Part shown: piece after piece, positions 1 to 11,107 of the stretch
Position numbering within the stretch: position 1 is the first letter of the stretch
Layout: every line of letters begins with the position of its first letter
Assembly: GCA_964535855.1 (NCBI GenBank)
Contig: CAZHVH010000041.1
Span: forward strand, 1 to 14,259
DNA: 14,259 bases
Reading direction: 5' to 3'
From: an uncultured bacterium
GTDB taxonomy: Bacteria; Poribacteria; WGA-4E; B28-G17
The notes under the pieces: generated by a model
What the model was told of the DNA's origin: nothing
Database searches by the model: none
The model's input: the letters and a program-made list of their open reading frames with translations, nothing else
Made by a program: the position numbers and the translations under genes

Positions 1-154
1 CCCGATCGGAGCCATCCTCATCAGGTATTCGATGTCATTCAGCGACTCCTCCCTCACGGAGAGAGCCGCCAGGGTATATATGAGGATCATAGCGCTCATC
101 ATCTCACTGGGTAATCCTATAATATCGGGGATGCGCATGTCAAGCCACCGCCGC

Positions 155-183
155 TTGACAGGTAAGCCAAAATCGGTTAGAAT
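155..183 (+). promoter_or_regulatory. Sigma70-type promoter upstream of the FAH-family gene: -35 TTGACA (155-160), 17-nt spacer, -10 TAGAAT (178-183)
   Basis: Read directly from the sequence: TTGACAggtaagccaaaatcggtTAGAAT. The -35 is a perfect hexamer, the -10 matches TATAAT at 5 of 6 positions, and the spacer is exactly 17 nt. It lies about 35 nt upstream of the ATG at 218, which is preceded by the purine-rich gggaagggacgggag. Confidence 0.5.
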
Positions 184-217
184 TATCCAGTCTAAATTCC
201 CAGGGAAGGGACGGGAG

Positions 218-1147
218 ATGCGCATTATCCAATTTTTCTTGCCTGGAGAGGGGAAAAGGGTAGGCGTTCTGGCCACGGACGGTAGGGTTATCGATATCAC
301 CACCGATGAGATCTCCAGCACCCTGCGACTTCTACAGATAGCGGAATCGGAGGGCGTAAGCCTAAACGTGATAGCGGCGGAGATGGAGGAGGAAATCTCG
401 CTTAAACATCCCGATAAGGAGGAGCTCCCCCGGATCACATTTCCCGAGCTTGATGTCCAACCCCGCGACAGTGTGCCTCATCTCCTCATCCCGATAGACC
501 CACCTGAAGTTTGGGGGTGTGGCGTCACATATTTCAGAAGTGCCGAGATGAGAGACATCGAAACGGAAGGAGATATCTACTCCAGGGCTTACAGAGCTGA
601 AAGGCCTGAGATCTTCTTCAAGGCCACCGCCTCCAGATGCGTCGGGCCAAATGAGCCGGTGTGCATACGCAGCGATTCGATCCATACCGCCCCTGAGCCT
701 GAACTCGCCTATATCCTCGACGGCAAGGGAAGGATTATCGGATATACGATAGCCAACGATATGTCGGCCTGGGACATAGAGAGGGAAAACCCGCTTTATC
801 TGCCCCAATCGAAGATTTACAGGGGATGTTGCGCTCTGGGGCCGATGATCGTCACCACATCCGAGATACCCGATCCTATGGACCTGAGCATAACCTGCAG
901 GATTATAAGGGAAAATGAGATAATTTTTGAAGGTGAGATCAACACATCTCAGATGAAACGATCGATAGATGAGATCAACGAATATCTGCTTCGGGACAAC
1001 CCGATCCCGACAGGCACGGTCGTGATGACGGGAACCGGAATCGTCGCCCCTAAGGATCTACCCTTAAGAGATGGGGATGTGGTGGAAATCGAAATCGAGG
1101 AGATAGGGGTTCTGAGCAACCCCGTTCGTAAGCTCGAACCTATTTGA
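218..1147 (+). CDS. Fumarylacetoacetate hydrolase (FAH) family protein. Candidates include 2-keto-4-pentenoate hydratase, 2-keto-3-deoxy-sugar-acid dehydratase or an oxaloacetate decarboxylase-like enzyme; the exact substrate is unknown.
   Basis: The ORF track's frame opens at 32, but residues 1-62 look non-protein-like. The FAH-typical N-terminus MRIIQFFLPGEGKRVGVLATDGRVIDIT begins at the ATG at 218, which has GGGAG immediately upstream. The C-terminal half carries FAH-fold signatures: EPELAYILDGKGRIIGYTIANDMSAWDIE, MTGTGIV, and GDVVEIEIEEIGVLSN. Confidence 0.75.
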   Translation: MRIIQFFLPGEGKRVGVLATDGRVIDITTDEISSTLRLLQIAESEGVSLNVIAAEMEEEISLKHPDKEELPRITFPELDVQPRDSVPHLLIPIDPPEVWGCGVTYFRSAEMRDIETEGDIYSRAYRAERPEIFFKATASRCVGPNEPVCIRSDSIHTAPEPELAYILDGKGRIIGYTIANDMSAWDIERENPLYLPQSKIYRGCCALGPMIVTTSEIPDPMDLSITCRIIRENEIIFEGEINTSQMKRSIDEINEYLLRDNPIPTGTVVMTGTGIVAPKDLPLRDGDVVEIEIEEIGVLSNPVRKLEPI

Positions 1148-1164
1148 GATCGAGAGGTCTTGAG

Positions 1165-2166
1165 GTGGAGGGGAAATTTAAAGTCGTGGCAACGGATGCA
1201 GGGAGGTTCGCTCCGAAGGTCGAAAGCGAGATCCTCGCGAAGCTCGGCGCGGAGGTGATCCCGGCCAGGTTTAAGGATGAGGACGAGCTTATCCAAAACG
1301 TTCGAGACGCCGACGCTATCCTCAACGCCGTGACCAAGATTACCAGGCGCGTGATAGAATCACTTCAAAAGTGTAGGGTTATAGTTCGATACGGTATAGG
1401 AGTCGACACGATAGACATACCGGCGGCAACCGAGCACGGGATATGTGTGGCGAACGTCCCTGATTTCTGCTGGGAGGAGGTATCGGATACGGCGATGAGC
1501 TTGATCCTGGCCGTATCCCGTAAGGTCGTATACATGAATAACCTGGTCAAAGAGGGCATATGGAGCAGGTCCAAGGCCGCCCCCATTCACAAATATCAGC
1601 TCCAGACCCTCGGGCTGCTCGCCTTCGGAAACATACCTAGAACCCTGGTAAAAAAGGCCAGACCTTTCGGATTCAAAAGAATTATATCCCATGACCCATA
1701 TGTATCCCAGGAGGTCTTCAGGCAATACGGTGTGGAGCCGGTGGATTTCGAGACGCTTCTGAGGGAGTCGGACATACTCTCGATTCATACCCCGCTGACG
1801 GAGGAGACATATCATATAATCGGCGAGCGTGAGTTGAGGATGATGAAGCCCACGGCCTATCTGATAAACACCAGCCGCGGTCCGGTTATAGATGAGAAGG
1901 CCCTTTGCAGGGCCCTCTCTGAGGGGTGGATCGCCGGAGCGGGATTGGACGTGATGGAGAAGGAGCCTCCCGACAGGGACAATCCGCTTCTGAAACTTGA
2001 TAACGTCGTCATAACGCCTCATTACGGCTCATACACCGAAGAGGCATATCACGAGCTGAAGGTCAAGGTGGCGGAGAACGCTGCCGCCTGCCTGAGGGGA
2101 GAGCTTCCGAAATACCTGGTCAATCCTGAGGTGGTGCCTAAGCTGAAATGGCTGAAGAAAAGATAA
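1165..2166 (+). CDS. D-isomer-specific 2-hydroxyacid dehydrogenase family protein (PGDH/CtBP-like, NAD-binding)
   Basis: The catalytic Arg/Glu/His triad is present: NTSRGPVID, GLDVMEKEP and ITPHYGSYT. There is a Rossmann beta-alpha-beta with a terminal Asp (KRIISHD), but its glycine-rich loop is the atypical AFGNIP rather than GxGxxG. The start is uncertain. The GTG at 1165 has a GAGAGG Shine-Dalgarno 8 nt upstream. The alternative TTG at 1144 overlaps the upstream stop as TTGA but has no Shine-Dalgarno. Confidence 0.8.
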   Translation: MEGKFKVVATDAGRFAPKVESEILAKLGAEVIPARFKDEDELIQNVRDADAILNAVTKITRRVIESLQKCRVIVRYGIGVDTIDIPAATEHGICVANVPDFCWEEVSDTAMSLILAVSRKVVYMNNLVKEGIWSRSKAAPIHKYQLQTLGLLAFGNIPRTLVKKARPFGFKRIISHDPYVSQEVFRQYGVEPVDFETLLRESDILSIHTPLTEETYHIIGERELRMMKPTAYLINTSRGPVIDEKALCRALSEGWIAGAGLDVMEKEPPDRDNPLLKLDNVVITPHYGSYTEEAYHELKVKVAENAAACLRGELPKYLVNPEVVPKLKWLKKR

Positions 2167-3587
2167 ACGTCTATCAGAATCCGCTCGTCCAGAGGTACTC
2201 CAGCGAGGAGATGCTTCGCAACTTCTCTCCTCAGAGGAGAGGGGAGATCTACAGGGAGCTTTGGATAGCGTTAGCTGAGGCAGAGAGGGAGCTGGGACTT
2301 CCTATAACCGAGGAACAGATAGAGGAGATGCGGAGGCACAAGAGCGATATAGATTTCGAGGAGATAGCGCGGGAGGAGCGCAGGATAAGACACGACGTGA
2401 TGGCACACATACGAATTTTTGGCTCACAATGTCCAAAGGCCAAGCCGATAATACATTTAGGAGCGACCAGCGCCTTCGTCGGGGATAACGCCGATCTCAT
2501 CCAGATGCGGGACGGGTTGAAGATACTGAGGGCGAGATTGGTGAACCTGATAGCCGCTCTGCGCGATTTCGCTCTGAGATATCGCGATCTGCCGACGCTC
2601 GGCTTCACTCACTTTCAGCCCGCTCAGCCGACGACCGTCGGCAAAAGGGCGACGTTATGGCTTCAGGATTTCGTGATGGATTATCACGAGATCGTGGGCA
2701 GAATCGAATCACTCAAGTTCCGTGGCGTCAAGGGCACAACGGGAACACAGGCCAGCTTTGTGAGGTTGTTCGGAGGGGATGAGGAGAAGGTCAAGAGGCT
2801 CGATCAGATGATCACTCGTAAGATGGGTTTCAGTGAAAGCTTTATCGTAACCGGACAGACGTATACCCGGAAGGTGGATGCTCAGATCGCCTCCGCTCTT
2901 TCCGGTATAGCGCAATCGGCGCACAAGTTCAGCAACGACATCAGGCTGTTGCAGCATCTAGGGGAGGTCGAGGAGCCTTTTGGGAAGAGCCAGGTCGGCT
3001 CATCCGCGATGGCTTATAAACGAAATCCGATGCGATGTGAGAGGATAGGGGCGCTTTCCAGATATGTGATCACATTGGCTCAAAGCCCTTATTTCACCGC
3101 TGCAAGCCAGTGGTTGGAGAGAACGCTGGATGACTCGGCCAACAAGCGGCTTTCGATACCGGAGCTCTTCCTAGCAACTGACGCCGTTCTGCTGGTATGC
3201 ATCAACGTCGCCCAGGGGTTGAAGGTATATCCCGAGGTGATAAGACGACATCTCGAGGAGAAGTTGCCCTTTATAGCGACGGAGGATATCCTCATGGAGT
3301 CGGTTAGAAGAGGAGGGGACAGGCAGGAGCTGCACGAGAGGATAAGAGGATACGCCATGGAGGTCACCCTGCAGATGAGATCGGGAGGTGAGAATGACCT
3401 GCTGGAGAGGATCGCCGCTGATAGCTCCTTCGGACTCTCCATGGAGGAGCTCAGGGAGATGATGATCCCCGGCAGATTCGTCGGTCGGGCGCCGTCACAG
3501 GTCGTCGAATTCATAGAAAGGGAGGTCGACCCTATAATTCAGCGAGACAGAGAGCTGATAGGCGCCGGGGTAGAACTAAAGGTGTGA
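2148..3587 (+). CDS. purB: Adenylosuccinate lyase (long, roughly 480-aa form)
   Basis: The N-terminus is NPLVQRYSSEEM...LWIALAEAERELGLPI. The fumarate-lyase signature is GSSAMAYKRNPMRCERI, against the adenylosuccinate lyase consensus GSSxMPxKxNP. Length and overall order fit PurB. It overlaps the upstream gene by 19 nt. Confidence 0.9.
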   Translation: MAEEKINVYQNPLVQRYSSEEMLRNFSPQRRGEIYRELWIALAEAERELGLPITEEQIEEMRRHKSDIDFEEIAREERRIRHDVMAHIRIFGSQCPKAKPIIHLGATSAFVGDNADLIQMRDGLKILRARLVNLIAALRDFALRYRDLPTLGFTHFQPAQPTTVGKRATLWLQDFVMDYHEIVGRIESLKFRGVKGTTGTQASFVRLFGGDEEKVKRLDQMITRKMGFSESFIVTGQTYTRKVDAQIASALSGIAQSAHKFSNDIRLLQHLGEVEEPFGKSQVGSSAMAYKRNPMRCERIGALSRYVITLAQSPYFTAASQWLERTLDDSANKRLSIPELFLATDAVLLVCINVAQGLKVYPEVIRRHLEEKLPFIATEDILMESVRRGGDRQELHERIRGYAMEVTLQMRSGGENDLLERIAADSSFGLSMEELREMMIPGRFVGRAPSQVVEFIEREVDPIIQRDRELIGAGVELKV

Positions 3588-3596
3588 GGTAACGCC

Positions 3597-4691
3597 ATGT
3601 TTTTCAGAAAAAAAGATGAGATGGAGATAAAACTGGCCTCAGGTAAGAACGACATATCGCCTGAAGCCTGCCTCAAGAGCATCATTGCCTCCCTGCTGCA
3701 GATAATAGGGATCTACGCCAAGGAGGGGGAAGGGCTCGAGACCTCCAAATACAAGCAGCAGCTCAGGGACATATCCATGAAACTGAAGGAGATCGAGGAT
3801 ATATTCGAGTTGAACCAGCTTAAGAACGATCTCACCCGACTTATCCTGAGACAGAAGGAGGCCGAGAGGATCTACGACGAAAAGAGGATATCGGAGCTGA
3901 AGGAGATAATAAGGCTTTTGATAAAGGCCCTTAACAAGTTTCTCTCCGATGACAAGGAGTTCAGTCAGGGAGTCGAGAAGGACATATCGAGACTGGAGGG
4001 GGCTTCGAGGCTGGAAGACATAAGGCTCATCAAGCAAGAGCTCTCACAGGTGGTGGGACAGTTGCAGGAAAGGCTTAAGGAGAGACAGAGCAGGCTGGAG
4101 AAAACGGCGGATGAACTGGCCGTTAGGGTGGTGGAGTTGGAGGAGAAGCTTTCTCAGATGACGGAGGAGGCGTTGATCGATGAGACGACGAAGCTCTTCA
4201 ACAGAAGGGCGCTCATGCGAAGGCTGGAGGAGGAGATAACCAGGTTCAACGTGACCAACATCCCGTTCTCCCTTGTCATATTCGACGTCGACCATTTCAA
4301 GCAGGTCAACGATGAGCACAACCACTTGATAGGCGATAAGGTGCTCTATATGGTTGGCCGGATAGCCAAGGAGACCTTCAGGGCGGACGACTTCGTGGCC
4401 AGAATGGCCGGGGATGAGTTCGCCGCTATGCTGTTCGGCAGCACCGGCACCGATAGCTGGAATGCCGTTGAGAGGTTGAGGAGCAACATAGCTAAGAAGG
4501 TCTTCAAATATGAGCGGGATGGCAAACCGGTGAGCATAAAGATAAGCATAAGCGCGGGGGTGGCATGGGTGAGAAGCGATGATACGCCGGAGACTCTCTT
4601 GGAACGGGCGGATAAGGCGATGTATCTGGCCAAACAGAGGGGGAGAGATCAGGTCGTCCCGGAATCCGAACTCAAGGAGGAGGGGGAATGA
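3597..4691 (+). CDS. Cytoplasmic diguanylate cyclase-like protein: N-terminal coiled-coil region of about 190 aa plus a C-terminal GGDEF domain with variant AGDEF active-site motif and an RxxD I-site
   Basis: GGDEF-domain landmarks are [47 protein letters not shown] (RxxD five residues before A-G-D-E-F, codons 4407-4421), [10 protein letters not shown] and [16 protein letters not shown]. Residues 1-190 are heptad-rich and charged ([30 protein letters not shown]...) with no TM segment and no recognisable sensor fold. Confidence 0.85.
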
Positions 4692-5476
4692 TAGTATATG
4701 AGGTCGGGGTGGCCCTCATCGCTGTTATCGTCCTGGCATACATGTCCATGAAGATACTTCGCGAGTATGAACGTGGAGTGGTTTTCAGGCTCGGTAAGCT
4801 CCATAAGGTGAAAGGGCCGGGGTTGGTCTTCATCATCCCATTCATAGATAGGATGGTGAGGGTATCGCTGAGGGTCAACGCCGTGGATGTGGAGGAGCAA
4901 GACGTCATAACCTCGGATAACGTCTCCGTTAAGGTGAACGCCGTCCTCTACTATAGGGTCGCCGATCCGGCCAACTCCGTCGTCGAGGTTGAGGATTACC
5001 AGTTCGCTACCACTCAGGTTGCTCTCACCGCCCTTAGGAGTGTCATCGGGAAGTTCGAGCTAGATGATCTCCTTTCCAAAAGGGAGGTGATAAACGAGGA
5101 GCTGAGCAGAACCGTTAAGGAGCATGTCGATCCCTGGGGGATATCAGTCTTGGCTGTTGAGGTTAAGGACGTGGATCTACCTGATGAGATGAAGAGAGCG
5201 ATGGCAAAGCAGGCTGAGGCGGAGAGGGAGAGAAGAGCCAAGGTTTTAAACGCTCAAGGTGAATATGAGGCCGCCGAAACGTTGCTCAAAGCCGCCCAGA
5301 CCATACAACAGAGTCCCACGGCCGTGCAACTGAGATTCCTTCAGACACTGATCGAGGTGGCGTCGGAGAACAACTCCACCATAGTATTCCCCTTACCTAT
5401 AGACCTATTAAGGCCATATCTTGCAAAAGAGGGGACAAAGGAGGTCGGTGCGAAAAATGCCAACGGGCAGAATTAA
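4688..5476 (+). CDS. SPFH/band-7 (stomatin/prohibitin-like) membrane protein
   Basis: An N-terminal TM helix ([16 protein letters not shown]) is followed by the stomatin signature [11 protein letters not shown], then [13 protein letters not shown] and a C-terminal coiled-coil ([20 protein letters not shown]). The start overlaps the GGDEF gene stop as ATGA. Confidence 0.9.
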
Positions 5477-6263
5477 ATACTATAACAGCCAGAAGGGATT
5501 CGGCTTTATCGCCCAGGACAGCGGGGAGCAAGATCTGTTCATGCACATCTCCTCCGTCAGAAAGCATGAAGGGGAGATACAACCGGGACACTTCGTCTAT
5601 TATGAGATAGGACAGGGCCGCAAAGGCTTGGAGGCCAAGAATATCATAGTATCATCCCGTAAGATAGACGAGAGCAAGCTTCAGGAGATTCTGAAACCCA
5701 GACGCCGAGCCCCTCGCCCCAAAGGCAAAGGAGGGCCGAAACAGCCTCAGAAGCAGGCTCAGCCGACACAACCTCAGGTGAAGAAAAAGAAAAAATTGAT
5801 CCCGGATGACGCCTACATGATCAAGCAGGCCAAAAACCAAACGCCCATGGTCTTCGAGATCTACGACCATCCTCACCTCAAATGCCTGGTCAAAAAGAAA
5901 TACAAATACGATATCGATCTCCTCATAGACGGAGAGGTCAAGCGATTCTTCATGCACGACATCAAGTTCTGCTATAAGGTGCGGGACGAGGAGAAGGTCA
6001 AACGGGCGATCAGTTACGACGAAGAGGTGAGATCACAAAATCTCAAGGCGATCATACCCCGCAAGGAGAGATACAAGATCCCGGATGAGGAGCTGAAGAA
6101 GGCATACAAGGAGGAAAAGCCGATAATGCTGGTCATGCGAGGCGGCGAAGTGATAATCGGCACGATAGAATGGTATTCGAAATATGCCATCAAGGTTAAC
6201 CTCCCAATAGGAGGTTCCGTGCTGGCATTCAGACATGCCGTCTATAAATTCCAGAGCCTGTGA
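5457..6263 (+). CDS. Cold-shock-domain protein with Lys/Pro/Gln-rich basic linker and a C-terminal extension of about 155 aa ending in a putative Hfq/Sm-like motif
   Basis: The CSD carries RNP1 KGFGFI and an RNP2-like DLFMHI ([34 protein letters not shown]...[14 protein letters not shown]). The linker is [34 protein letters not shown]. The C-terminus is [45 protein letters not shown], against Hfq [26 protein letters not shown]...MVYKHAIS. The start is at ATG 5457, with an AAGGAGG Shine-Dalgarno 11 nt upstream; the track's TTG at 5421 is unlikely. It overlaps the SPFH gene by 20 nt. Confidence 0.7.
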
Positions 6264-6271
6264 GATTTAAG

Positions 6272-7297
6272 ATGAGAGTTGTCGTCTACGGATCAGGGGC
6301 CTTCGGCTTCGCATTAGCGAAATACCTCGGTGATAAGTTCCGAATGGATAAGGCGGTGGAGATCTGTCTCTACGATAGGAATGAGGATCTGATCTCTCAC
6401 ATCAAAACCGCCCGAACCCACCCCGTTCATTATCCGGATATCCCCCTTCCCATGAAGGTGAAACCCACCTTTGATATCAAATGCGTCCGGGAGGCCGATT
6501 TGATAATACTGGTCGTTCCGAGCCAGTCCCTTAGATCGGTCTCGAGGGAGTTCGCCGGATATGTCCCCCACAAAGCGACGGTGCTCAACGCCACAAAGGG
6601 GTTGGAGCTGGGAAGCTGTAAGAGGCCATCACAGGTCATAGGCGAGGAGCTGAGCAAGGCTAACTTTAAAGGTGAGATAGCGACCTTCTCCGGAGGAACG
6701 ATAGCGTCGGAGATGATCATGGGAGCAGCACTGGGGGCGGAGATCGCATGTCCGAACAGAGAGGTGGCGAGATGGCTTCAGGGATTCATGGCCAGCGACA
6801 GGCTCAGAATATATGCTAATACGGATATCGTAGGCGTGGAATATGCCGGGGCCTTCAAAAACGTTATCTCCATCGGAGCGGGGATCTCCGACGGGTTGAA
6901 CAACCCCTGGGGCACCAAGACGCTCCTCATATCGCGGGCGTCAGCCGAGGTCAAGAGGCTGGCGTTAAAGTTAGGCGCTCAGCCGCATACCTTCTCCGCC
7001 GAAAGCCAGGCTTGGTGCAACGATCTGTGGATGAGCTGTATGGGTAACACCAGAAACAGATATTTCGGGGAGCTTATCGGAAGGGGATTATCGGTCGAGG
7101 AGGCCCTCAAGGTGATGAGCCATGAGAGAAAGCTGGTCGAGGGGTATTACACCACGAAATCGGCCTATCAGCTCGCTCAGGAACATGAGGTGGACGCGCC
7201 GATCATCAAGGCCGTCCACGATGTCCTTTATCTCGGAAGAGACCCGCTGGAAGCGATGAGGGAGCTTATGTCCCGTTCGCTCAAATTCCTCAATTGA
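6272..7297 (+). CDS. gpsA: NAD(P)H-dependent glycerol-3-phosphate dehydrogenase
   Basis: The N-terminal Rossmann segment is MRVVVYGSGAFGFALA, followed by TDIVGVEYAGAFKNVISIGAGISDGL and GNTRNRYFGELIGRGLSVEEA. These match GpsA's conserved blocks TDVVGVE.GGALKNVIAIAAGI.DGL and ...RNRRFG..LG.G. The start is most likely ATG 6272, 8 nt after the upstream stop. GTG 6260 is the alternative. Confidence 0.85.
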   Translation: MRVVVYGSGAFGFALAKYLGDKFRMDKAVEICLYDRNEDLISHIKTARTHPVHYPDIPLPMKVKPTFDIKCVREADLIILVVPSQSLRSVSREFAGYVPHKATVLNATKGLELGSCKRPSQVIGEELSKANFKGEIATFSGGTIASEMIMGAALGAEIACPNREVARWLQGFMASDRLRIYANTDIVGVEYAGAFKNVISIGAGISDGLNNPWGTKTLLISRASAEVKRLALKLGAQPHTFSAESQAWCNDLWMSCMGNTRNRYFGELIGRGLSVEEALKVMSHERKLVEGYYTTKSAYQLAQEHEVDAPIIKAVHDVLYLGRDPLEAMRELMSRSLKFLN

Positions 7298-7310
7298 GGG
7301 GGAGATTGAG

Positions 7311-8207
7311 GTGAACGATCTGGATGAGATCAGGGAGATCATAGATAGGCTTAAATCCCTCGTGCAGGAGGGTAAGATCGACCCGAAAACCCTTCTGGCT
7401 GAGATAGGCGGCGAATCGAAAGGCGAAGTGAGGGAGATAAATCTGGAGGAGATAGCAGCCGAGGAGAGCGAGGCGCAATCTTACTTCTTCGGAGAGGAGA
7501 TCCGGTTCGCTGCCGAAGACTTCGAGCCTTATTCGGAGGAAATCCGCCGTTGTATGCCCTTCGGGCTCGAACCACACATACTGCTGCCCAGAAGCTTCAC
7601 ACCCCAATCGCAATACCCCGGCTGGCGCGTCAGGATGGAGAAATGGGTCTACACGCGGATCGAGAACGAGGAAATGCCGCCGGAGACGATAAACCTCTCC
7701 CCATACTTCGATACGGCGGCCCTCGTGCTGGTAGACACCCGGATGAAGCCGGACTATCAAAACGGCAGACAGATGTACCGGAACGATTCCGACTTTTTGG
7801 GAAAGATCATAGGCCAGATGAGGGAAAACGGCGTCATACCGAGGCGGGGATATATAGAGAAAGGGTCCAGATATGCTATTTCGTGGACCGAGATACATAG
7901 GTTCATTCTGCCTGAATTGGCGAAGCTGCTGGGGCTGAAGAGGGATCAGATTAGGCTGCCAAGGCTCGTGGAGTTCTGTTTCTTAAGCGACTGTTTCTAT
8001 CCGCAATGGTATCAAGGTAACACATGGGAGTGGTTCGAGGACAATGTGAGGTTCGGCAGTAGGGAGGAGAAGCTCTTCGGAGGCAAGTTCAGTTTTGCCA
8101 CCATGTCAACATCGGTCTACACCAACTGGCCGGAGGCGAGAAGCGACAGGATAGGCTTTCGCCCTCTTATCCTCCTCGGCAAACTCGATCGATGGAAGCT
8201 GGGGTGA
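7311..8207 (+). CDS. Cytoplasmic FGE-sulfatase (SUMF1/EgtB-C-terminal-like) domain protein with an acidic N-terminal extension of about 85 aa; no Cys at the position of the FGE copper-binding Cys pair in my alignment
   Basis: It begins at a GTG with a GGGGGAG Shine-Dalgarno 8 nt upstream. FGE-domain blocks are visible: AISWTEIHRF...RLPRLVEFCF (cf. SUMF1 VSWNDAVAYC...RLPTEAEWEY), GNTWEWFED (cf. GNAWEWTSD), KLFGGKFSF (cf. RVKKGGSYM) and RSDRIGFRP (cf. NLGFRCA). There is no signal peptide. Where FGE has its CxxxxC, this protein has FATMSTSVY. Confidence 0.45.
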   Translation: MNDLDEIREIIDRLKSLVQEGKIDPKTLLAEIGGESKGEVREINLEEIAAEESEAQSYFFGEEIRFAAEDFEPYSEEIRRCMPFGLEPHILLPRSFTPQSQYPGWRVRMEKWVYTRIENEEMPPETINLSPYFDTAALVLVDTRMKPDYQNGRQMYRNDSDFLGKIIGQMRENGVIPRRGYIEKGSRYAISWTEIHRFILPELAKLLGLKRDQIRLPRLVEFCFLSDCFYPQWYQGNTWEWFEDNVRFGSREEKLFGGKFSFATMSTSVYTNWPEARSDRIGFRPLILLGKLDRWKLG

Positions 8208-8213
8208 TAGCCG

Positions 8214-10061
8214 ATGCCCAACCTCTTCGCATACGGAATGCTCATGAACGACTCCATAACCAGACGCGTCACGGGAAAGGTTTTCCCGAAAAAGAGGGCC
8301 ATACTTGAGAATTACGAGAAGATAATGCCCGGAACAGGATACTCCTATATCCTTCCAAAAGTTGGTTCCACCGTGGAGGGATATATACTGTATGGGATCG
8401 ACGAGGAGACCATAACGAAGATAGATCGATACGAGGCGGAGGGAGACCTATATGACCGGAAGGAGGTGGAGGTGATCGTTCAAGGCCGACGTGAGAGGGC
8501 CTATGCCTATGTGGGAAACCTGCACGGACTGAACAAATTCTTCGGACCCGAGGTCTACACGGATGTGAGGATCAAGGAGTATCTCGAGAGGAAGCTGAAG
8601 GATCTGACCGACCTGGAGGATCAGGAGAGCACAGATCTCGTCCACAGGGCAAAGGCCGAGCTGCTGGGCGATAAGATAGAGGCGCTCATCTCAGCCCATT
8701 TTCGAAGATCTGCCGATCTGAGATATCTGATAGATAAGATCCTCTACAAGCCCTCCCTCCCGACCTTAGAGGGCGTCAAATCCGATCCGGAGGCATTGAG
8801 GTACGCCAACGCCTATATCAAATTGATGGTCAAGCACGTGATCTTCAACCAGCTTGAACGTATGATCAACAATGCCTTCGCCGGCGAGATCACCGTGAAT
8901 CCTAAATTCCATGAGAGAACGCTCTCCAATCTCGTCGCTCTCATATTTATGAACAGAAAAAGCATTGCCGTGGAGAAGATCATGGAGGCGATCGGGGCTA
9001 ACAGGCTGAGCATGGATAAGGATTATCTGGAATATACGGTGATGGGAATCAGGATAGCCGATATGATCTTCGACCCGATGGAGATCAAGGAGATCATCGA
9101 ATGGGTGAGAGGGCACAGGCATCCGGGCAGAGTTCCCCTCGGTGCTGAAATCGAAATGAGCGATATAGGGGCGAGGGCCGTTGATGCGCTGCCGGGAGAG
9201 GACAACAGATATGATAGCTTCTACTACTTCAACGACTTCGATCTGCTACATAGATGCTGGAAACTCGGAGGACATGTGGACGATCATTCAGGCGTGGAGG
9301 AGCCTGAAGGACGAACGAGGGGATTCTTCGAGTATTCACTGGGGAAGATCGGCACGATAGGCGATTTCTCCAAGCCGGTCACAGACGATCCATGGGTGTT
9401 GAACCAGTTGATAAATCAAGCCGTGCTCTTCGCTGACATCCTGCCCCACAGCTTCCATATCACCCTCGACGCTCAAGGCGAACCGGATATGTCACGCTCC
9501 AGCGATCCGGAGCTTCTGATCTGCCTGTTGCTTCTGTGTGGCGATATAGAGCCGGATAAAGGCGGACATCTTCATGAAAACAGGATCTGCAATTGTGAGA
9601 TAATCGATAAATACGGCAGATTACACTTCAGCGATGAAAACGTCCACTTCGCCTCGGAGGAAGACAAAGAGGAGGGGTTCATAGGGCGGTCAAGGAGAGC
9701 GAACCTGATCGAATACAAGTTCATGAGGCTCAAGAGCAATCATAACTACGAGCCCTTCATCCTAGCCTTAAAGGGGTTCCAGCTCGGATACAACCCCAGA
9801 CCTTTGGGCTCCACTTTCAGATCCTTGGATGAGTTCAAATTCCCCGAGATCGAGGCTCTAAGGGAATGGGCGGAAAGACCTCAACCTCTGTCTAGATCCA
9901 TCCTGATGGAATTCCTTCGGCTGGTGAGAGAAGGGCTGATGAGGGAGAACGAGGGGAAACCTGCCCATCCGATCGATTACATAGAGTATAACCTCAAAAA
10001 GATCGAGAGGAAATTAGACGAGGTGAATGAACTGATAAAATCGAGCGGAAGGAGGGGATAA
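8214..10061 (+). CDS. Large uncharacterised protein: N-terminal gamma-glutamyl cyclotransferase-like domain (YtfP/AIG2/GGACT family, residues 1-105) plus a C-terminal region of about 510 aa of unknown fold with a Cys cluster
   Basis: The N-terminus aligns block-for-block with E. coli YtfP. MPNLFAYGML matches MRIFVYGSL, ENYE matches DNYQ, GSTVEGYILYGIDEETITKIDRYE matches GTVHGEVYRIDNATLAELDALR, and EAEGDLYDRKEVEV matches the catalytic-Glu block GGEYARQLIQ. The remainder has no motif I recognise: no Walker A, no nuclease and no kinase signature. A Cys/His patch, ICLLLLCGDIEPDKGGHLHENRICNCEI, sits at residues 437-461. The start is 4 nt after the upstream stop, and the stop overlaps the argC start as TAATG. 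Confidence 0.6.
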   Translation: MPNLFAYGMLMNDSITRRVTGKVFPKKRAILENYEKIMPGTGYSYILPKVGSTVEGYILYGIDEETITKIDRYEAEGDLYDRKEVEVIVQGRRERAYAYVGNLHGLNKFFGPEVYTDVRIKEYLERKLKDLTDLEDQESTDLVHRAKAELLGDKIEALISAHFRRSADLRYLIDKILYKPSLPTLEGVKSDPEALRYANAYIKLMVKHVIFNQLERMINNAFAGEITVNPKFHERTLSNLVALIFMNRKSIAVEKIMEAIGANRLSMDKDYLEYTVMGIRIADMIFDPMEIKEIIEWVRGHRHPGRVPLGAEIEMSDIGARAVDALPGEDNRYDSFYYFNDFDLLHRCWKLGGHVDDHSGVEEPEGRTRGFFEYSLGKIGTIGDFSKPVTDDPWVLNQLINQAVLFADILPHSFHITLDAQGEPDMSRSSDPELLICLLLLCGDIEPDKGGHLHENRICNCEIIDKYGRLHFSDENVHFASEEDKEEGFIGRSRRANLIEYKFMRLKSNHNYEPFILALKGFQLGYNPRPLGSTFRSLDEFKFPEIEALREWAERPQPLSRSILMEFLRLVREGLMRENEGKPAHPIDYIEYNLKKIERKLDEVNELIKSSGRRG

Positions 10062-11107
10062 TGGTTAAGGTGGGAATCGTCGGGGCGTCGGGATATACCA
10101 GCAGTGAGCTGCTAAGGTTTCTACTGTCACATCCCGAAGAGGTCAAAATCGAGATACTCACCTCTCAGACCTATGCCGGAGAGCGGATCGATAAGGTCAT
10201 ACCCAATCTTCGGGGATTCATGGATCTCCGCTTCGAGAGATTTGATCCCGATGAGGTCGCATCCAGATGCGATATAGTCTTCCTTGCCCTTCCCCACAAA
10301 GTCGCCATGCAGTTCGCCCCGCCACTTCTGGAGAGAGGGGTGAGGGTGATAGACTTCAGCGCGGACTACAGGCTGAAGGACGTAAAAACATACGAGAGAT
10401 GGTATGGCGTCGAACACACATCTCCTCATCTGATTAAGAGGGCGGTCTACGGATTGCCCGAGTTACACAGGGAGGAGATAAAGGATGCGCGCCTCGTCGC
10501 CAACCCCGGATGCTATCCCACGGGCGCTATACTGGCCGCCGCCCCCCTGATGAGGCGCGAGGGGATCGTGGATAGATCTCTCGTGATAGTCGACGCCAAA
10601 ACCGGAATCTCAGGGGCGGGCAGGAAACCCTCCGACAGAACGCACTATCCTTCCCGGACGGAGAACTTCGAGCCCTATAACGTTATGGCGCACAGACACT
10701 CGCCGGAGATGGAACAGGAACTGAGCCTTATCGCCTCAGAACAAGTCCTCGTGGCCTTTACACCACATCTGGTGCCGATGAGCAGGGGTATACTGAGCAC
10801 CCTCTACTTCAGGATGACCGGGGCTGTTTCCACGAAAGAGCTGCTGGAAATCTATAGGGAATTTTACAGATCGGAGCCGTTCATCAGGGTGCTGGATAAG
10901 GGCGAGCTTCCATCGACGAAGGCGGTCTACGGGAGCAACTTCTGCGACATAGCCGTCCTAGCGGATGAACGGACGGGCACCGTGGTCGTCATGTCGGCCA
11001 TAGATAACCTCGTGAAGGGCGCCTCAGGTCAGGCGTTGCAGAACATGAACCTGATGTGTGGGTTCGATGAGAGGGCGGGGCTCAACCTAGCCCCTCTGAT
11101 GCCGTAG
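10061..11107 (+). CDS. argC: N-acetyl-gamma-glutamyl-phosphate reductase (an ArgC/LysY-type semialdehyde dehydrogenase)
   Basis: Conserved blocks are MVKVGIVGASGYTSSELLRFL, the active-site Cys in LVANPGCYPTGAILA, TGISGAGRK, HRHSPEMEQEL, FTPHLVPMSRG and AIDNLVKGASGQALQNMNLMCGF. A GGAGGGG Shine-Dalgarno lies upstream. Confidence 0.92.
   Translation: MVKVGIVGASGYTSSELLRFLLSHPEEVKIEILTSQTYAGERIDKVIPNLRGFMDLRFERFDPDEVASRCDIVFLALPHKVAMQFAPPLLERGVRVIDFSADYRLKDVKTYERWYGVEHTSPHLIKRAVYGLPELHREEIKDARLVANPGCYPTGAILAAAPLMRREGIVDRSLVIVDAKTGISGAGRKPSDRTHYPSRTENFEPYNVMAHRHSPEMEQELSLIASEQVLVAFTPHLVPMSRGILSTLYFRMTGAVSTKELLEIYREFYRSEPFIRVLDKGELPSTKAVYGSNFCDIAVLADERTGTVVVMSAIDNLVKGASGQALQNMNLMCGFDERAGLNLAPLMP

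Follow-up and report, generated by a model that had tools for sequence, protein, structure and literature searches.

Among the general RNA chaperones of bacteria, Hfq and the cold-shock proteins have been studied best; each is normally a small protein of its own. An "augmented" Hfq has its nearest precedent in the zinc-finger-Hfq fusions ("augmented" Sm proteins) of Thermococcus and Methanococcus plasmids (Mura et al. 2013, PMC3710371, citing Krupovic et al.). Here, we analyzed a stretch of 14,259 nucleotides from an uncultured member of the Poribacteria (assembly GCA_964535855.1, contig CAZHVH010000041.1; the whole stretch is called the window below), in which one gene (the CSD-Hfq gene) is predicted to encode a cold-shock domain (CSD), a basic linker and a module of two Hfq-like units in a single chain. 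Like the protein of the window, the plasmid fusions combine an N-terminal nucleic-acid-binding domain with a C-terminal Hfq-like domain (PMC3710371). However, they carry a C2H2 zinc finger and a single Hfq and belong to plasmids or mobile elements, whereas the window protein has a CSD and a tandem Hfq and is the product of a phylum-wide chromosomal gene.

Architecture of the CSD-Hfq protein

The gene and its predicted parts are located in the window as follows.

5457..6263 (+): the whole CSD-Hfq gene with CSD, basic linker and tandem Hfq-like module; an intact open reading frame (ORF) of 268 codons plus stop, from the translation
5438..5444 (+): Shine-Dalgarno-like AAGGAGG, read from the sequence, 12 nt 5' of the ATG
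5457..5654 (+): cold-shock domain, residues 1-66, from Pfam, NCBIfam and PDB matches
5493-5510 (+): RNP1 motif KGFGFI, residues 13-18, from the translation
5532-5549 (+): DLFMHI at the RNP2 position (LFMHI being residues 27-31), from the translation
5655..5795 (+): basic low-complexity linker, residues 67-113 (47 aa; K12 Q7 P7 R5, net charge +14)
5805..5978 (+): N-terminal Sm/Hfq-like unit (N-unit), residues 117-174; helix 117-126 and five strands in the AlphaFold2 (AF2) model, with profile matches
5952-5978 (+): Sm2-like stretch MHDIKFCYK of the N-unit, from the translation
5979..6083 (+): inter-unit connector, residues 175-209; two short helices and a PxxPRKERY motif, conserved
6084..6260 (+): C-terminal Hfq-like unit (C-unit), residues 210-268; helix 210-218 and five strands, Sm1 glycines G230 and G235
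6228-6242 (+): Sm2 motif FRHAV of the C-unit, F258-R259-H260-A261-V262

The Hfq homology of the module comes from the family profile and from its relatives, the window protein alone being insufficient to establish it. A word-indexed protein search returned two relatives only, one of them a 170-aa protein consisting of the module alone, and when the PDB was searched with a profile made from just those two sequences, Hfq and Hfq-like chains came out on top (E about 1e-3). An exhaustive HMMER search revealed 330 family representatives at 50% identity, including 134 with E<=1e-10. For profile comparisons, 116 module copies were aligned and the alignment was split into N-unit and C-unit halves. With the C-unit profile (41 sequences), the first 37 PDB entries were all Hfq or Hfq-like, with E values from 3.6e-8 to 1e-4 and alignments spanning the helix, Sm1 and Sm2. 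The N-unit profile matched six PDB sequences, all of them Hfq or Hfq-like, with the best match to S. aureus Hfq (E=0.0019). When compared with each other, the N-unit and C-unit profiles matched with 95-97% probability (E 3e-8 to 1e-10). Individual relatives gave the same picture in Pfam, where 29 of 42 matched Hfq at E<=0.01 (best 2.8e-11) and 10 matched Hfq_1. Since both halves match Hfq and each other by profile, the module arose through internal duplication of an Hfq-type Sm domain.

These results bear out a preliminary description of the window, which had proposed an Hfq/Sm-like C-terminal domain with the Sm1 pattern and FRHAV in place of YKHAI, preceded by a weaker repeat representing a second Sm-like unit. 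The profile searches for Sm, LSm and Hfq that it had called for found Hfq and essentially nothing else, and no unrelated DUF emerged. All peptides quoted in that description were correct, and just two of its nucleotide coordinates need a small correction, to 6251 for the end of the C-terminal segment and to 5877-5981 for the upstream segment.

Residues 115-268 were modelled with AF2 using a 42-sequence alignment; this run replaced one made with a two-sequence alignment, whose mean predicted local distance difference test score (pLDDT) of 52 made it usable for secondary structure only. The resulting model (pLDDT 97.2, predicted template modelling score (pTM) 0.91) contains an N-terminal helix followed by a five-stranded bent sheet, twice. 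In model numbering, the N-unit (pLDDT 97) has a helix at residues 3-12 and strands at 16-21, 24-34, 38-43, 46-51 and 55-60, and the connector forms helices at residues 61-70 and 75-78. The predicted module thus has the Sm fold, in which a strongly bent antiparallel sheet of five strands comes after an alpha-helix. In two structure-comparison methods its best neighbours were bacterial Hfq proteins, ahead of LSm, SH3 and OB folds. The bent sheet sought earlier is predicted in both units and a non-Sm fold in neither. A search of a viral fold library with the module produced only matches of high root-mean-square deviation, regarded as noise, and single-barrel phage proteins. The high pTM, together with strongly conserved connector residues, suggests that the barrels have a fixed orientation relative to each other.

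Residues 1-66 read as an ordinary CSD and a full member of PF00313, as had been proposed from the KGFGFI and DLFMHI motifs. The Pfam match (E=5.4e-16, 58.7 bits against a cut-off of 27) aligns residues 3-64 with profile positions 2-64 of 66, the NCBIfam CspE and CspD models match at E values of 1e-13 to 5e-15, and PDB cold-shock proteins at E=3e-11. The RNP1 and RNP2 motifs with their aromatic residues align to those of the cold-shock proteins 5xv9 and 5o6f, and we infer a five-stranded OB-fold from the ~40% identity to solved Csp structures. The following 47 residues have no Pfam family match and correspond to the basic low-complexity linker recognized previously. In 78 orthologues, the linker ranges from 42 to 124 aa (median 93) and has 72% disorder-promoting residues, a median net charge of +3 and no conserved sequence. 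The linker is presumably disordered. Because its length varies, its sequence is not conserved and the median charge of the orthologues is only +3, it would behave as a flexible tether whose strong basicity is particular to the lineage of the window.

Translation from the ATG at 5457 gives the N-terminus common to the homologues P0001, P0003 and P0152. In comparison with a syntenic JGI metagenome contig (L002), the CSD-Hfq gene shows 50 synonymous and only four non-synonymous codon changes, all four of them K/R. Thus, the ORF is a real gene under strong purifying selection. The distribution of the gene was analyzed by a scan of one genome per species with a single peptide pattern from closer relatives, [KM][HLT][DNQ][IV]K[YF][CL]YK; this pattern does not bound the family, and the all-Poribacteria outcome of the scan overstates how restricted the family is. 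The scan identified 80 loci, of which 78 are titled Candidatus or uncultured Poribacteria and two "uncultured bacterium". A CSD motif was present upstream in the same frame in 77 of the 80 loci and in 78 of the 82 module-bearing ORFs overall, the exceptions being a contig-end truncation, a CSD-less paralogue, one short ORF and a non-Poribacteria TARA contig. The closest locus (L003; 89% identity) is from a Guaymas Basin metagenome-assembled genome (MAG), Candidatus Poribacteria B28_G17. Hence, across the whole phylum Poribacteria, this conserved chromosomal gene normally has CSD, linker and tandem Hfq in this order.

Retained Hfq surfaces and proposed function

The unit profiles were aligned to S. 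aureus Hfq and to E. coli Hfq, and the profile-search alignments of the S. aureus and C. crescentus proteins agree with the result. In the C-unit, the Sm1 glycines G230 and G235 are conserved in 99% and 97% of the family, and Y243 corresponds to the pore-proximal aromatic F42 of Hfq (Y, F or W in 94%). F258-R259-H260-A261-V262 aligns to Hfq Y55-K56-H57-A58-I59, with His in 92% and Arg or Lys in 82% of the family at the positions of H57 and K56. By this alignment, the C-unit appears to retain three of the four residues of the proximal uridine pocket (Q8, F42, K56 and H57), namely Y243, R259 and H260. The N-unit agrees with the Sm motifs only in part: Y151 aligns to F42 (Y or F in 95% of the family), H167 is kept, and Gly, Ala or Cys occupies the position of Hfq G34. 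The connector is among the most conserved parts of the module (R205 96%, P198 73%, L196 72%, D188 72%). In the units, judging from the aligned positions, conservation is concentrated where Hfq rings have the uridine pocket at their pore.

On this basis, we propose with a probability of about 0.6 that the CSD-Hfq gene encodes a three-part nucleic-acid-binding protein, composed of a CSD, a basic flexible linker and a rigid duplicated Sm module of ~150 residues, which probably acts as an RNA chaperone or an RNA-binding regulator. The retained proximal-pocket residues, namely the aromatic aligned to F42 in each unit and R259/H260 of the C-unit, would let the Hfq-like units bind single-stranded RNA that is probably rich in U, and the tethered CSD would capture or melt neighbouring single-stranded RNA. 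The basic linker would add non-specific electrostatic contacts of the kind made by the arginine rim of canonical Hfq. The predicted presence of two Sm units in one chain excludes the canonical homohexamer of one-domain subunits. As Hfq pockets form between adjacent subunits and each chain supplies two units, the most economical assembly would be a pseudo-hexameric ring closed by three chains, in which non-equivalent pockets alternate and from which three CSDs hang. An extended version of this proposal is tentative and, in our view, rather doubtful: a single-chain "melt-and-match" RNA chaperone in Poribacteria and scattered other lineages, in which three chains would form a pseudo-hexamer with two diverged, alternating pocket types and three CSDs on basic tethers would feed or unfold RNA at the ring, while the tandem-Hfq module would be an unrecognized portable nucleic-acid-sensing cassette used also in helix-turn-helix (HTH) regulators and GmrSD-type defence nucleases.

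Several observations weigh against the assignment as an Hfq-like RNA chaperone. When searched alone, the window protein remains below the curated cut-offs of Pfam Hfq (PF17209; 12.5-14.1 bits against 27, E 0.04-0.1), Pfam Hfq_1 (14.9-16.4 bits against 27, E 0.01-0.03) and TIGR02383 (12.3-13.8 bits against 61.7, E 0.04), and it matches PDB Hfq and MJ1435 with E about 0.4; the sub-threshold matches to Hfq models all fall at residues ~205-263. Hfq Q8 aligns to P209, which is not conserved, and the distal-face residues are replaced (Y25 by V226, with T or V in the family, I30 by E231 and K31 by V232). With these residues and Q8 not conserved, canonical A-rich (ARN) binding is unlikely. At the arginine rim (R16, R17, R19), the window protein has K218 as its one basic residue, and 61% of the family have K or R at the R19 position. 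In the N-unit, 94% of the 116 family members have Lys at the K56 position, but the window protein has Met166 (5952-5954). This Met is common to the closest relatives P0001, P0003 and P0152; the window sequence reads MHDIKF against KHDIKY or KLDIKY in relatives, and the exchange may alter every second putative pocket, or half of them, in the lineage. The gene neighbourhood shows neither a link to RNA metabolism nor conservation. Finally, XRE-type HTH domains and GmrSD nucleases are fused to this module in relatives, which fits a role on DNA or in general nucleic-acid or ligand sensing equally well.

The last observation also suggests a protein that acts mainly on DNA, as a nucleoid-associated, single-stranded-DNA-binding or transcription-linked regulator, instead of as an RNA chaperone; given the HTH and GmrSD-nuclease fusions among relatives, we consider this alternative improbable but not negligible. 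Another arrangement, which is unlikely but deserves more weight, has no ring at all. Here, the two Sm barrels would pack as a closed pseudo-dimer, as in tandem Tudor or SH3 barrels, Gemin6/7 or the non-oligomerising EDC3 LSm, and the protein would be a monomeric or dimeric multivalent binder of single-stranded RNA through its CSD and two barrels. The pTM of 0.91 obtained for the isolated module describes a self-contained rigid two-barrel body, the conserved 35-residue connector (R205 in 96% of the family, P198, L196, D188) is not present in canonical Hfq, and small beta-barrels in one chain often make private barrel-barrel interfaces (bioRxiv 10.1101/140376). Relatives with three to four units per chain (P0070, P0090, P0112) also fit a simple trimer of tandems poorly. 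However, the most conserved positions of the module are the equivalents of F42, K56 and H57, which in Hfq line the pore pocket between subunits, and this is most easily explained by persisting inter-unit pockets. Moreover, the closest structural neighbours are ring-forming Hfq proteins, not monomeric LSm domains.

The Hfq likeness could also be a generic similarity of small beta-barrels or a chance motif, or the fusion an artefact of assembly or gene calling. The sub-threshold scores of the window sequence alone (E 0.01-0.1) and its metagenomic character, with a JGI metagenome contig and a MAG as nearest matches, point in this direction. In contrast, family profiles, 29 of the 42 relatives and both structure-comparison methods pick Hfq over LSm, SH3 and OB, the undivided ORF is seen again in 77 of 80 independent assemblies including many complete chromosomes, and codon changes are overwhelmingly synonymous along the whole ORF. 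These explanations are effectively refuted, and the presence of CSD, linker and duplicated Sm module in one chain is well supported by sequence and model together.

Relatives and genomic setting

The ~150-residue module is found on its own, after basic low-complexity N-termini, after one or two CSDs, before XRE-type HTH domains and in multiple copies, and its 330 representatives identify it by sequence as an evolutionarily mobile unit. CSD fusions of clearly different sequence are also present (P0036, P0037), and one CSD-less member is from a Myxococcota MAG. The B28_G17 MAG, which contains L003, also encodes a CSD-less tandem-Hfq paralogue (L005:5405-6157, about 45% identity, Pfam Hfq E=9e-5); therefore, at least some Poribacteria have two tandem-Hfq proteins.

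Two large relatives contain GmrSD-type (DUF262/DUF1524, type IV restriction-like) endonuclease domains: P0070 (1142 aa) with four module matches and P0081 (849 aa) with two module matches and a C-terminal CSD. In PADLOC, the nuclease parts of both proteins match Orf5, HEC-06 and mREase_IV. A defence-system origin of the window protein itself was considered and rejected, since PADLOC matches its CSD alone. P0081 represents an independent second way of joining Hfq units and a CSD, in a probable defence nuclease. The recurrence of this pairing in P0081, in the other order, and in P0011, which has two CSDs, suggests that the two domain types work well together. P0030 contains HEAT repeats. Among the HTH-containing members, P0005 has a CSD, a tandem Hfq and a C-terminal HTH_3 domain (E=2e-14, Pfam), P0137 has the module followed by two HTH domains (Pfam), and P0006, P0007, P0009 and L004 have XRE-type HTH additions by sequence resemblance. 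The XRE-HTH members would pair an RNA-chaperone-like module with a DNA-binding domain in one protein. CSD-less members of ~250 aa (P0153, P0156, P0165, P0168, P0024, P0029 and P0033, one from a Myxococcota MAG) begin with two helical repeats of ~25 residues each, such as GLPRNLAFQVAMGNLTLSDALKKL ... LQRSLATQIAMGQVSLEDVLRK. A Pfam scan of P0153, the only helical-repeat member scanned, gave no match at the repeats, and this pair may be an undescribed small domain.

In the window, the CSD-Hfq gene is part of a row of eleven genes on the plus strand (32-11107) with overlaps or very short gaps, for example at 1144/1147, 2148/2166, 4688/4691, 5457/5476, 6260/6263 and 10061/10061. Closely spaced and often overlapping, the genes include, in this order, those for an FAA hydrolase, a 2-hydroxyacid dehydrogenase, adenylosuccinate lyase, a GGDEF protein and an SPFH/HflKC-like protein, the CSD-Hfq gene, gpsA, two genes of unknown function and argC. 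This arrangement suggests a single long co-transcribed unit of functionally unrelated housekeeping genes. A consensus scan found no sigma-70-like promoter near the CSD-Hfq gene, the promoter and terminator scan being at or below chance, and no Rfam families or tRNAs were found within the window. The gene order of the window is shared by its closest relatives only, and nothing in the neighbourhood comparison points to a dedicated operon.

In Proteobacteria, hfq is located in the hfq-hflX-hflK-hflC cluster, and given this cluster, the presence of an SPFH (HflK/HflC-like) gene beside an Hfq-like gene is curious. The gene in question (4688-5476, plus strand) lies directly 5' of the CSD-Hfq gene, overlaps it by 20 nt and encodes an SPFH/Band-7 protein that matches TIGR01933 with E=1.7e-26, below the equivalog cut-off. 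The adjacency is found only in the closest relative L002 and not in other Poribacteria. Two further genes, 3' of gpsA on the plus strand, are conserved in L002 and L003. The first (7311-8207) encodes a 298-aa protein with no Pfam or NCBIfam match and the second (8214-10061) a 615-aa protein, in which a GGACT/AIG2-like gamma-glutamyl cyclotransferase domain at the N-terminus (E=4e-17) is all that can be recognized. In 62 of 79 Poribacteria loci (L006-L082, ~6390-7150 in locus coordinates), the CSD-Hfq gene is followed directly on its 3' side by a gene for a cysteine-rich protein of ~210-250 aa with a putative zinc- or iron-chelating CxxCxxCC domain (PF03692, E=4e-4). ORFs recognized as RecJ-like and RelA/SpoT-like by sequence resemblance only are often located further 3' in Poribacteria loci.

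Comparison with known systems

The preliminary description had taken the combination of a CSD with an Hfq fold to be undescribed. Searches of the full-text literature turned up neither a CSD-Hfq fusion nor a tandem Hfq within one chain. The link of the module to Hfq, however, is partly known: several relatives that lack a CSD already carry the name "sRNA-binding regulator protein Hfq" in JGI and NCBI annotation. A two-repeat Hfq in Novosphingobium is said to have been reported by Sun, Zhulin and Wartell (2002), while a citing paper speaks only of "two hfq genes". The one literature match for Poribacteria together with Hfq was FlgV, a protein with two transmembrane helices, which was discarded as unrelated.

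The conserved natural fusion suggests that the activities of Hfq and cold-shock proteins can be physically coupled, and it offers a ready-made system to ask how single-strand capture or melting by a CSD cooperates with strand matching by Hfq. The covalent Sm duplication would parallel, in bacteria, the eukaryotic step from homomeric to heteromeric Sm rings and would allow two non-equivalent pocket types within one ring. The protein is a candidate global RNA-binding protein for the Poribacteria, a phylum without cultivated members to which sponge symbionts belong. Three quarters of the protein are overlooked by present annotation, as the CSD-fused orthologues are labelled "CspA family cold shock protein" only.

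Bacterial Hfq proteins (PF17209; C. crescentus 6gwk, S. aureus 1kq1, E. coli 3rer) have one unit per chain, whereas the window protein has two, joined by the conserved 35-residue connector. It has no C-terminal tail, adds an N-terminal CSD and a basic linker, does not conserve Q8 or the distal-face ARN residues, and scores below the Pfam and NCBIfam Hfq cut-offs. Because of these low scores, the two Sm units per chain and the missing distal-face and Q8 residues, the module is best described as a homologue of Hfq with the predicted Hfq fold and Sm motifs, but not as a canonical Hfq. The archaeal protein MJ1435 from Methanocaldococcus jannaschii (2qtx, 5dy9) was the second match of the C-unit profile (E=5e-8), after C. 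crescentus Hfq, and it shares NGEV..G....S.YEI.......L.VFKHAI with the family consensus almost residue for residue. Unlike the window protein, MJ1435 is a single-domain homohexamer of 71-residue chains with neither a CSD nor a duplication.

The bacterial cold-shock proteins CspA, CspB and CspE have the same canonical CSD with RNP1 and RNP2 aromatics as the window protein. However, typical Csps are single-domain proteins of ~70 residues, whereas in the window protein the CSD is a quarter of the chain and is tethered to two Hfq-like domains. The CSD-less tandem-Hfq relatives (P0165 from the Myxococcota MAG, P0016, P0122) have the same ~150-residue module with conserved Y151, K166, R205, G230, G235 and RHA positions, but their N-termini consist of basic low-complexity stretches, a repeated helical motif or nothing, and it is these proteins that are auto-annotated as Hfq. 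Compared with all of these systems, what is new is the phylum-wide architecture of two well-known RNA-chaperone folds, one of which is covalently duplicated.

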